Positions 34,801 through 37,800 of a stretch of 64,000 nt of DNA are shown in pieces. The position numbers were made by a program. Source of the stretch: a virus (taxonomy: Duplodnaviria > Heunggongvirae > Uroviricota > Caudoviricetes); the IMG/VR virus record IMGVR_UViG_2537562189_000009. One strand, given 5' to 3'. Each line of letters starts with the position of its first letter. The stretch's first letter is position 1.

Positions 34801-37800
34801 GCCTGACAGAGATTATCCAGTGCCGATAGTCGAGACTGAGAGCTTTCTTAACCTCGAACCCGCGCCTGCGGTAAGAATGAATCAGCCATTCGGCCTGTTC
34901 TGCAGTGCATGGAGGGTGCTGGAACCATTCAGACTTGAATGCGTGAGAATACCGCCCGTGCGTGCAGGCAAGAACGGGCGAATTATCAGAATTGTAATAT
35001 TTTGCGTTGCGTGCCATCGGTTTTCTCCGGTGGCACGGTGTTACTCAGCGGGAGTTCAGCCCCGCGCAAGATTGTAGATGAGTTTATTCTCCTGAAAAAG
35101 CAGAAAAGCCAGCTTTTATTCCGATCTCTTTCAATGCCTGTAATGAAGTGACAAACTCACCTTCGCGCAAGATAAATCCGTCCGTGACCCGAGCATCCAC
35201 AAAATTAATTAACGCAGCCCCATTCTTTCGCAAACACATAATGCGGTAATGACTAACAAGATTTCCATTTTCAACGCACACAGCATAGAGGCCATCTTCA
35301 CAAAAAATTTTACGCAGTTCTTCGATGTTCATCATCAGAATCCTTCCGGATAATTAGCTCTCCCCTTTAAGGGACCATCCCTCTTATCCCTGCGCGCTAC
35401 TTAAGTATTTTTGATTCTATTCCGGCACCGTCCAGAACTTCAAACGCGTTAGAAAACTAAAAACAAAAACCCGCCGAAGCGGGTTAAGTGCGAGTGCGTT
35501 GAGGATGCCTGCCACATCAGAGGTGGCGAGGGATTTCTCCCTCGCCGGGTCTCTTACTCCTCAGGTTCGTAAGCTGTGAAGACAGCGACCTCCGTCTGGC
35601 CGGTTCGGATTCGTACCTCGCAGAGGTCTTTCCTCGTTACCAGTGCCGTCACTATGACGGTTAAACAGATGACGATCAGGGCGATTAACATCGCCTTTTG
35701 CTGCTTCATAGCCTGCTTCTCCTTGCCTTTCGGCACGTAAGAGGCTAACCTACATGTGTCTAGCATACAAACTCACCTTCGCGCAAGATAAATCCGTCTG
35801 TCACTCGACCATCCACAAAATTAATTAACGCAGCCCCATTCTTTCGCAAACACATAATGCGGTAATGACTAACAAGATTTCCATTTTCAACGCACACAGC
35901 ATAGAGGCCATCTTCACAAAAATTTTTACGCAGTTCTTCGATGTTCATCATCAGAATCCTTCCGGATAATTAGCTCTCCCCTTTAAGGGACCATCCCTCT
36001 TATCCCTGCGCGCTACTTAAGTATTTTTGATTCTATTCCGGCACCGTCCAGAACTTCAAACGCGTTGAAAATAAAAACAAAAACCCGCCGAAGCGGGTTA
36101 AGTGCGGGTGCGTTGAGGATGCCTGCCACATCAGAGGTGGCGAGGGATTTCTCCCTCGCCGGGTCTCTTACTCCTCAGGTTCGTAAGCTGTGAAGACAGC
36201 GACCTCCGTCTGGCCGGTTCGGATTCGTACCTCGCAGAGGTCTTTCCTCGTTACCAGTGCCGTCACTATGACGGTTAAACAGATGACGATCAGGGCGATT
36301 AACATCGCCTTTTGCTGCTTCATAGCCTGCTTCTCCTTGCCTTTCGGCACGTAAGAGGCTAACCTACATGTGTCTAGCATGAAATTGGCCTCAGATTAAT
36401 GTTAAGCGTCTTGCAGGACGCGTAATGTTAACTGGGGCTTTTCTCTATCTGCCGTTGGTATTCATGCCCGAGGCAGATAGCCTCAAGCACCCGCAGGCAT
36501 TCTACTTAACTCCCGTTATCTCGCCAATATGAAATCAGTCAGAAAGGCGATCCATAAGAATAACAGAACAATAAATTACCCGCACCACCGCAATAGTCAG
36601 CGAACATTTAAGAACCAACATGACAGCCTCCCACATTTAAAGTACGTATGTTCTAATAAATATAAATGGCATGATTCTGCGAAATACTTACATAAGCAAT
36701 TCGCTCAAATCTGACTGTCAGTTTTGAGCGAGAAAAATGATATCTACATATCTATCAAATTACAAATCTTAAAGCCTAAAAAACTTATCGTCCTCCCCAA
36801 GCTCAAGCACAACACTATTATTTATGAAGTCTTGATCAATATTCTCCAACTTGTCTTTAAGAATAGCCAATATATATTGACCATTAATCCCCGAAGCTAT
36901 CTCGAATAACTTATTTATTTGATTTACATGAATTGCCTCAATTCCATCATGAGCTATAAAACGTGGTGTTCTGGCTTCTAAAGACTCCTGGACAGATAAA
37001 TAGGCAAAATCTAAAGAGGCAACCTGGGCTTTCTTTTTTCCTTCTCCCTGATTACCTGATGTGAGCAAAGTTCCTAAAGGTTCAATGGTAAAAACGAAAG
37101 AACCGGAGGAATCTTTATAGGAAAGAATATATTCATCCTGATATAATTTTTTAGTATATAAAGAAAAATAGGAATTGAATAGCGCAAGACGTTTGTTAAA
37201 ATCGTCAAGTTTAGATTTTAATCTATCTGACACATCATTAAACTTTGCTTTCAGTATATTAAAGTTGTTCTCCATCTCTTGGATTTGAAGTAGTCCAGCT
37301 TCAAGCCCACCTTTTTCTTCAAATAATGAATTTAATTTTTTTTGCATTATTTGCAGGTCTGCCAATGTCCCATGCGAAGACAAACTCTTTAAAAGCTCTG
37401 ATTCTTGAGTCAATAAGTTATTTAGTTCATCTTTATATTTGGAAATTTCTTGCAGCACTGGCTGCATTTGTTTTCTAATAAACTCAGCTTTTTTTACAAG
37501 CATTTTATTATGAAACGAAAGTAGCTCAGTAAACTCTTTGTTTAAGTTACCTAACCGATCAGTTGCTTCTAAGTACAACTTCTGTAGATCTAGTGTATTT
37601 ATATTTTCATGACTTTTTTCCAGATCTAGTATAGCCTTATCGTTTAATTTTTGCTTAAACTCCAAAGATGATAGTATGATAGAAACTTCACTAATTTTAA
37701 TTTTTAACTCATTTAACTCAGCAAGCATATCATTATAAGAGTCTGCCACTTGAAAATTAGAAATTAACTCTTCTTGTGCTATAATATCTCTATTTATAAT

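Follow-up and report, generated by a model that had tools for sequence, protein, structure and literature searches.

A tandem repeat of the rem–hokD module in the draft genome of Escherichia coli 1.2264 places a leaderless second hok copy behind a truncated rem gene

A head-to-tail repeat in the early-right region of a lambdoid prophage

The window analyzed here, a stretch of 64,000 nt, derives from the draft assembly of E. coli 1.2264 (GCA_000194415.2, contig AEZO02000019.1, 449 kb) and comprises a lambdoid prophage together with adjoining chromosome, the latter marked by ynfE/ynfF paralogues at 53.8–58.7 kb. From cro through the replication genes, an ABC-3C system, hok, rem, ydfU (DUF968), rusA and Q to the lysis genes, everything is encoded on the minus strand, which is the direction of the early-right genes transcribed from PR. 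Since Rem and the 51-aa toxin are identical to Rem and HokD of K-12, we assign the locus to the rem–hokD module of Qin-like prophages.

Within this module, two adjacent segments stand head to tail in contiguous sequence with a novel junction between them: unit 1 at 35151–35766 (616 nt) and unit 2 at 35767–36380 (614 nt). Read along the minus strand, both units have the same layout: a mok/hok copy (copy 1 in unit 1, copy 2 in unit 2) with its terminator, followed by a rem promoter and codons 1–62 of rem, which in unit 2 belong to rem′, a truncated duplicate of rem. The duplicated segment of 614–616 bp is thus bounded by rem codon 62 at one end and the mok ATG at the other, and along the minus strand the elements follow one another as hok promoter, 5′ leader, mok/hok copy 2, terminator, rem′, mok/hok copy 1, terminator and rem. 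Of the 616 aligned positions, 608 (98.7%) are shared by the two units, which differ by six substitutions (35183, 35186, 35189, 35193, 35307 and 35493) and by two insertions of 1 nt each, located in an A-rich spacer of unit 1 (35451 and 35457).

The presence of the repeat in the sequence is therefore confirmed, much as the first-pass annotation had described it: a tandem duplication of ∼615 bp, ∼98% identity with a handful of substitutions, and in each unit an intact hok ORF (35554–35766 and 36168–36380) and a terminator (35485–35468 and 36099–36082). The outer ends of the units were also placed correctly, but with unit 1 being 2 nt longer than unit 2, the internal boundary needs a shift of 1 nt. 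TRF did not report the repeat, as its period exceeds the longest period of 500 that the program covers, and no further near-identical tandem repeats were found in the 64-kb window.

The junction is blunt. With the break marked by a slash, the left flank reads ...GAAGTG/ACAAAC, the junction ...TAGCAT/ACAAAC and the right flank ...TAGCAT/GAAATT, so that the bases meeting at the breaks are G/A on the left, T/A at the junction and T/G on the right. Neither microhomology nor a short direct repeat marks the breakpoints; an ATGAA found nearby on both sides is out of register.

Copy 2 lies within a complete hok/sok architecture

The mok/hok ORF of copy 2 (36168–36380, minus strand) encodes 70 aa from the mok ATG at 36380 and scores 81.6 bits against Pfam HOK_GEF (cut-off 22). 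The 51-aa Hok, at 36168–36323, is in frame with mok, whose ATG lies 19 codons ahead of the hok ATG at 36323. Downstream of hok, a hairpin at 36160–36139 is followed by an intrinsic terminator identified by a terminator scan (36082–36099, minus strand), the hairpin of which leads into TTTGTTTTT.

Upstream, a promoter scan returned a candidate hok promoter, TTGGCG-17-TAGAAT (36499–36527, minus strand), which lies outside the repeat and would therefore serve copy 2 only. The transcription start that we place near 36492 coincides with the start of the Rfam leader model RF01794, which matches 36492–36318 over its full length (115.3 bits; gathering score 59). This match covers the 5′ leader of the hok mRNA (36318–36492, minus strand) with tac, ucb, the Sok target hairpin, the mok Shine–Dalgarno (SD) sequence GAGG and the mok ATG, down to the hok ATG. 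As a point of nomenclature, RF01794 is named 'sok' although it actually models the hok leader, starting with the tac sequence GGGUGCUUGAGG and ending at the hok AUG. In the predicted fold of 36492–36076, nucleotides 1–13 pair with fbi at the 3′ end and tac has an unpaired probability of 0.01, in line with a locked full-length mRNA, albeit that minimum-energy folds of RNAs of 400–560 nt are weak evidence.

The antisense RNA can be placed by reference to plasmid R1, where Sok has a 5′ tail of 11 nt that is the complement of T-ATG-TCTAGTC, a sequence comprising the mok start codon and the 7 nt after it (PMC1635323, Table 1; PNA-1). Because this tail covers the mok start, Sok should begin ∼10 nt inside mok, with its promoter further inside. 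At the corresponding position of unit 2, TTGCCT-17-TAACCT (36337–36365, plus strand) aligns opposite TTGCGC-17-TATCCT of the R1-type locus. This putative Sok promoter matches the sigma-70 consensus at 7 of 12 positions and falls under the threshold of a generic promoter scan; its assignment is based on homology to the R1-type locus and on the published 5′ end of Sok. The antisense RNA predicted downstream of it (36370–36449, plus strand) would consist of an 11-nt single-stranded 5′ tail, a long stem-loop (36381–36443) and a U-rich end, with a predicted folding energy of −30.6 kcal/mol (z = −5.9). All parts of the Sok architecture, from the promoter within mok through the free 5′ tail and the stem-loop to the U-rich end, are thus predicted at copy 2.

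Judged by its sequence, copy 2 is a complete hok/sok locus, with hok promoter, tac/ucb leader, Sok target hairpin, mok, hok, fbi, terminator and a convergent Sok gene, and it should behave as a normal one.

Copy 1 begins at the mok start codon behind a truncated rem

Copy 1 (35554–35766, minus strand; Hok at 35554–35709) is identical to copy 2 across 35494–35766, a stretch of 273 nt that includes mok, hok and the hok SD. Its ORF likewise encodes 70 aa, comprising the Hok/Gef toxin and the mok extension (HOK_GEF, 81.6 bits), and fbi and an intrinsic terminator (35468–35485, minus strand; terminator scan) are present as well. Its mok ATG at 35766 is, however, the first base past the junction: copy 1 starts exactly there and is devoid of the hok promoter, tac, ucb, the mok SD and the stem-loop and terminator of Sok. 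RF01794 scores only 27.5 bits at this copy, below the gathering score of 59, with 56 of the model's first 57 positions matched by just 2 bases and rem′ taking up the upstream sequence. A hok promoter of its own and a structured 5′ leader are thus absent from copy 1.

What precedes it instead is rem′ (35760–35951, minus strand), a 63-aa ORF composed of 62 Rem residues and a Cys, in an alternative natural rem allele. Its stop codon TAG (35762–35760) overlaps the mok ATG of copy 1 in the sequence ATGCTAG, and rem′ also provides an SD-like sequence, AAGGTGAG, upstream of this ATG. In the predicted fold, this SD-like sequence lies within a 13-bp hairpin, with an unpaired probability of ∼0.2. The promoter scan placed the promoter-like site TTGAAG-18-TAGAAT ahead of both rem ORFs on the minus strand, at 35414–35443 for rem and, duplicated, at 36030–36059, from where it would drive a transcript of rem′, mok and hok copy 1. 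Intact rem (35084–35335, minus strand) encodes 83 aa identical to K-12 Rem.

That one copy of the 83-aa ORF is truncated at the junction was foreseen in the first-pass annotation. The same annotation had hok copy 1 fused downstream of the intact 83-aa ORF, which does not hold: these are minus-strand genes, and copy 1 is downstream of the truncated rem′. With respect to intact rem, copy 1 hok lies upstream, as does hok in every single-copy genome.

The chimeric mRNA fold contained one further pairing. A 9-nt complement of fbi, GUGCGUUGA, occurs in the rem sequence (35887–35895 and 35271–35279) and pairs with the 3′ end of this mRNA; ∼0.03 such matches are expected by chance, and the 9-nt fbi pairing is therefore treated as unproven.

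The Sok promoter is carried by both units

Given the position of the mok start and of the Sok 5′ end, the putative Sok promoter and ∼10 nt of Sok fall inside the repeat and hence in both units. Unit 1 carries the identical TTGCCT-17-TAACCT at 35723–35751 (plus strand), with a predicted start at ∼35756–35758. Transcription from it would run through ∼10 nt of Sok tail and then antisense to rem′, giving an RNA that is predicted to be unstructured (fold z = +0.5). A terminator scan found no plus-strand terminator after this promoter. A complete Sok gene is consequently absent from copy 1, where only the promoter and the ∼10-nt tail are left (35723–35766). The earlier expectation that mok/sok regulatory elements are confined to the leader of copy 2 (36324–36520) is in this respect half right: the full leader is found at copy 2 only (RF01794, 115 versus 27.5 bits), but the repeat includes the Sok promoter (36337–36365 and 35723–35751) along with ∼10 nt from the 5′ end of Sok, and these occur twice.

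Possible origin and regulation of copy 1

Taken together, we cautiously favor a scenario in which part of the early-right segment (PR to Q) of a Qin-like prophage was duplicated by an illegitimate join, with the consequences for copy 1 outlined below. The segment bounded by rem codon 62 and the mok ATG would have been duplicated head to tail by a blunt, homology-free join. Copy 1 would then be transcribed only as part of a rem′-mok-hok message or through antiterminated read-through from PR upon prophage induction. Its mok start might be translated with the help of the SD-like sequence derived from rem′, or else through coupling with the rem′ stop codon that overlaps it; as the start both follows AAGGUGAG and overlaps this stop, initiation or translational coupling is conceivable.

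On the side of repression, copy 1 would be without the tac-fbi lock and without the canonical Sok duplex. It is probably restrained by the antisense transcript from the Sok promoter of unit 1, which would be fully complementary to the rem′-mok junction. Genuine Sok may contribute by pairing with the mok start region of copy 1, over only 10–11 nt. In functional terms, copy 1 would thus resemble the leaderless hokD (relF) of K-12, being tolerated and weakly expressed, and perhaps adding to the Hok dosage on induction. It is a reasonable inference from the sequence, and one already made in the first-pass annotation, that the two hok copies may be differently regulated.

A more far-reaching version of this scenario is that a real duplication created a new circuit in a single step, with copy 1 freed of tac/ucb/fbi and Sok control and instead restrained by a de novo antitoxin RNA made up of a Sok 5′ tail and an antisense-rem′ body. 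We consider this version distinctly unlikely. If true, it would offer a snapshot of how orphan hok genes (e.g. K-12 hokD) and new type I antitoxin RNAs originate, and it would give the prophage a second source of Hok that is independent of canonical Sok and responsive to transcription from the rem promoter or PR. Even the duplication as such, if real, would be a natural case of a breakpoint that uncouples a type I toxin from its folding and antisense control, with the antitoxin promoter still facing the junction, and would as such be informative on the origin of leaderless hok genes such as K-12 hokD/relF and of new antisense regulators.

Alternatively, the duplication could be real and copy 1 an inert passenger that is neither transcribed nor translated to a relevant degree; the Sok promoter of unit 1 would then have no regulatory role, and instead of two differently regulated copies there would be one that is simply dead. 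This is possible, if somewhat doubtful. Translation of R1 hok needs both mok translation and a refolding that is driven by the 5′ leader (PMC9841398), and it is this leader that is missing at copy 1. The burial of the rem′-derived SD-like sequence in the predicted hairpin points in the same direction, and K-12 hokD shows that a leaderless hok is tolerated. A dead copy is, however, harder to reconcile with mok and hok ORFs, a hok SD and a terminator that are all intact, the identity to copy 2 extending over the 273 nt given above, or with the promoter-like site ahead of rem′. The locus is, moreover, part of the PR operon and read through upon induction, and published work has found chromosomal hok to be toxic once the Sok promoter was inactivated.

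The junction was found in a single assembly

Whichever way copy 1 behaves, the scenario of a genuine duplication presupposes that the junction exists in the bacterium. A 60-mer across the junction gave only half-matches in 5,426 complete E. coli genomes, and the best matches to the locus were all single-copy. Similarly, a 32-mer and a 22-mer spanning the junction had no match among the GTDB representatives, IMG/VR and the JGI metagenomes, and the exact 63-aa Rem′ is encoded on one contig only (AEZO02000019.1). Among the matches listed, the best 15 phage records, including HannyBb and mEp460, were single-copy throughout. The junction was thus present in no other assembly searched. In our view, the duplication represents a structural variant, private to one strain, of a system that is thoroughly known; it is seen in one draft assembly, and its physical reality is unproven. 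As a strain-private variant of a well-studied module, it is of value mainly as a small case study, and as a caution on near-identical tandem copies in draft assemblies.

Natural alleles in the two units

The differences between the units bear on this question, since a recent strain-private duplication is expected to be identical; the eight differences observed therefore call for either an extra recombination event or an artefact. The four clustered substitutions, together with the T at 35923 in rem′, correspond to an alternative rem allele known elsewhere: a 60-mer over the four substitutions was found at ≥99% identity in 793 complete-genome records, for example in E. coli C. The A at 35493 was matched among the matches listed of 77 genomes, including B strains and strain C. 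The insertions at 35451 and 35457 are private to the assembly and occur in no complete genome. In part, then, the units differ by natural alleles, which rules out sequencing noise alone as well as a simple recent duplication. These alleles are also distributed in a particular way, with strain-C-type markers at the right end of unit 1 and the left end of unit 2, and K-12-type markers in the outer parts. Such an inner/outer pattern fits a real duplication followed by recombination with a related phage, and it fits contaminated contig ends that were abutted equally well. We also considered whether divergence is confined to the duplicated unit and rejected this, as over 6 kb on each side it likewise amounts to ∼1.1% and is patchy; the adjoining 1 kb on each side has 1 mismatch to the closest relative.

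The strain could in reality have a single rem–hokD unit at this site, with two overlapping contig ends that were abutted without being merged and of which one or both were perhaps partly built from reads of a second rem-hok prophage in the same genome. Several observations are compatible with such an artefact, first of all that the junction occurs just once, in a draft of the 2011 era, is absent elsewhere in the searches, and is blunt without microhomology. The units differ by alleles that are found in other prophages, and the inner C-type and outer K-12-type markers are as expected of contig ends contaminated by a paralogue. Genomes with the locus have a median of 2 matching places, which makes a paralogous source of reads likely, and the private insertions at 35451 and 35457, located in the A-rich spacer, could be consensus errors.

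Nevertheless, we regard an artefact as rather unlikely. Both units are part of one gap-free 449-kb contig without a run of N, and an assembler would normally require reads that span a novel junction. Furthermore, natural homology breakpoints between paralogous prophage modules at the unit boundaries would favor a graph-type misassembly, but none was seen there in 60 records sampled across the 5,154 that matched; homology broke at query positions 721, 553 and 457–463, and not at 151 or 764, the positions of the boundaries. The boundaries are therefore not graph branch points between paralogues. The inner/outer allele pattern, finally, would also result from a real duplication with later recombination with a related phage.

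It is very improbable that the tandem is an adaptive, heritable two-toxin module kept by phages, e.g. to increase the Hok dose at lysis or as a means of defence: prophage hokW-sokW does hasten lysis and raise phage yield (PMC8621323), and other type I loci such as ldr do occur in tandem arrays (PMC4147584), but there was no second occurrence in any collection searched, HannyBb and mEp460, both functional phages, have a single unit each, and the absence of the junction from all other genomes searched brings this reading close to refutation.

Comparison with known type I systems

Type I toxin genes arranged head to tail are known from the LDR repeats (ldr/rdl) of E. coli K-12 (PMC4147584). There, however, each repeat is a complete toxin and antisense unit and is conserved across strains, whereas the repeat boundary described here cuts through the regulatory region and is known from one assembly.

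A hok/sok system on a lambdoid prophage has likewise been described, namely hokW-sokW of the Stx2 prophage Sp5 in E. coli O157:H7 Sakai. It was shown experimentally to act as a type I toxin–antitoxin system and to hasten lysis and phage release upon induction (PMC8621323). Phage records annotate the present module as MokW. In contrast to the arrangement in E. coli 1.2264, hokW-sokW is single-copy and is not known to come with a second, leaderless toxin.

Copy 2 resembles hok/sok (parB) of plasmid R1, the canonical type I toxin–antitoxin system, in its predicted features, which include the RF01794 leader, the tac-fbi pairing, a mok start 19 codons ahead, the Sok promoter in mok, and the Sok tail and stem-loop. 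The two loci differ in that one is plasmid-borne and the other resides in a chromosomal prophage, and in the reading frame of mok, which is out of frame with hok in R1 and in frame here, forming a single 70-aa ORF. Copy 1 differs additionally in being leaderless.

The closest counterpart is hokD (relF) of the K-12 Qin prophage, part of the relB-relE-hokD operon, which the first-pass annotation had singled out for comparison. Hok, Rem and the downstream ydfU are identical, and the prophage position is the same. Like copy 1, K-12 hokD has lost its own promoter, the leader and the Sok body and sits directly downstream of another ORF. A breakpoint shared by the two was nonetheless rejected, as the break in K-12 lies just 14 nt before the hok ATG and thus 43 nt deeper in the locus than that of copy 1. 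K-12 hokD has thereby also lost mok, the Sok promoter and the Sok tail, and its neighbor is relE. At copy 1, by comparison, the break is at the mok ATG, the Sok promoter has been kept, the neighbor is the truncated rem, and an intact hok/sok locus adjoins.

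A third hok/sok-like locus in the window

Besides the duplicated hok loci, the window carries a third hok/sok-like locus (62368–62799, plus strand), which is ∼90% identical to them and lies 26 kb away in the opposite orientation. Within it, 62403–62577 matched the Rfam family RF01794 with 111.5 bits, ATA replaces ATG as the start codon of mok, and the encoded Hok (MMQQKAMLIALIVICITVVV...) is not the same as that of the duplicated loci. In other genomes, this locus is adjoined by DUF551, YgiW-family and LPD5/LPD38 genes, which suggests that it belongs to a second prophage-like element. 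The 432-nt inverted repeat could allow the DNA between the third and the duplicated loci to invert.

Sequence features and annotation of the duplicated hok loci

The match of the module to Escherichia phage PhiR42_1 (PV340562.1, host ECOR13) stopped at query position 1254, corresponding to position 36337 of the window, the same breakpoint as in K-12 hokD. The leaderless hokD arrangement therefore seems to be present in this phage record from ECOR13 as well.

Inside the coding sequences of rem and its truncated duplicate rem′, we observed the 9-nt sequence GUGCGUUGA (35271–35279 and 35887–35895, minus strand), which is complementary to the 3′ fbi element of hok, UCAACGCAC. In the predicted fold, it pairs with the 3′ end of the chimeric rem′-mok-hok mRNA, mimicking the tac–fbi pairing. 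This complementarity may be due to chance, with ∼0.03 such matches expected.

Both hok copies contain the Tyr47 codon UAC within CUUACGAA (36183–36185 and 35569–35571, minus strand). A preprint describes A-to-I editing of a tyrosine codon in the hokD mRNA, termed position 46, which changes Tyr to Cys (bioRxiv 10.1101/2025.08.07.668861), and the UAC of both copies looks like this edited codon.

Both hok genes are missing from the recorded gene calls of the source contig, which instead include a 38-aa ORF spanning the hok terminator and the rem′ promoter region (positions 5823–5939 of L003, the sequence from this contig; window 36013–36129, minus strand).

Other features of the window

Immediately upstream of the hok leader is a three-gene candidate ABC-three-component (ABC-3C) defence system (36769–39313, minus strand), consisting of a DUF2326 gene (574 aa; PADLOC PDC-M68B, 2.8e-41), MC6 (78 aa) and CTD10 (198 aa). 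The AT-rich insert that holds it is flanked by replication genes on one side and hok on the other.

Further Rfam matches were DicF (43661–43712, plus strand), which supports the classification of the prophage as Qin-like, and sRNA-Xcc1 (59150–59238, plus strand), as well as, on the minus strand, STnc100 (31217–31407), a cspA thermoregulator (27704–28119), IS009 (3342–3540) and two tRNAs (32107–32339) located between Q and the lysis genes. Finally, three tandem 132-nt repeats (5042–5437) fall within a 516-aa ORF (3883–5433, minus strand) of the prophage tail-fibre region; the second and third repeats share 77% and 62% identity, respectively, with the first.
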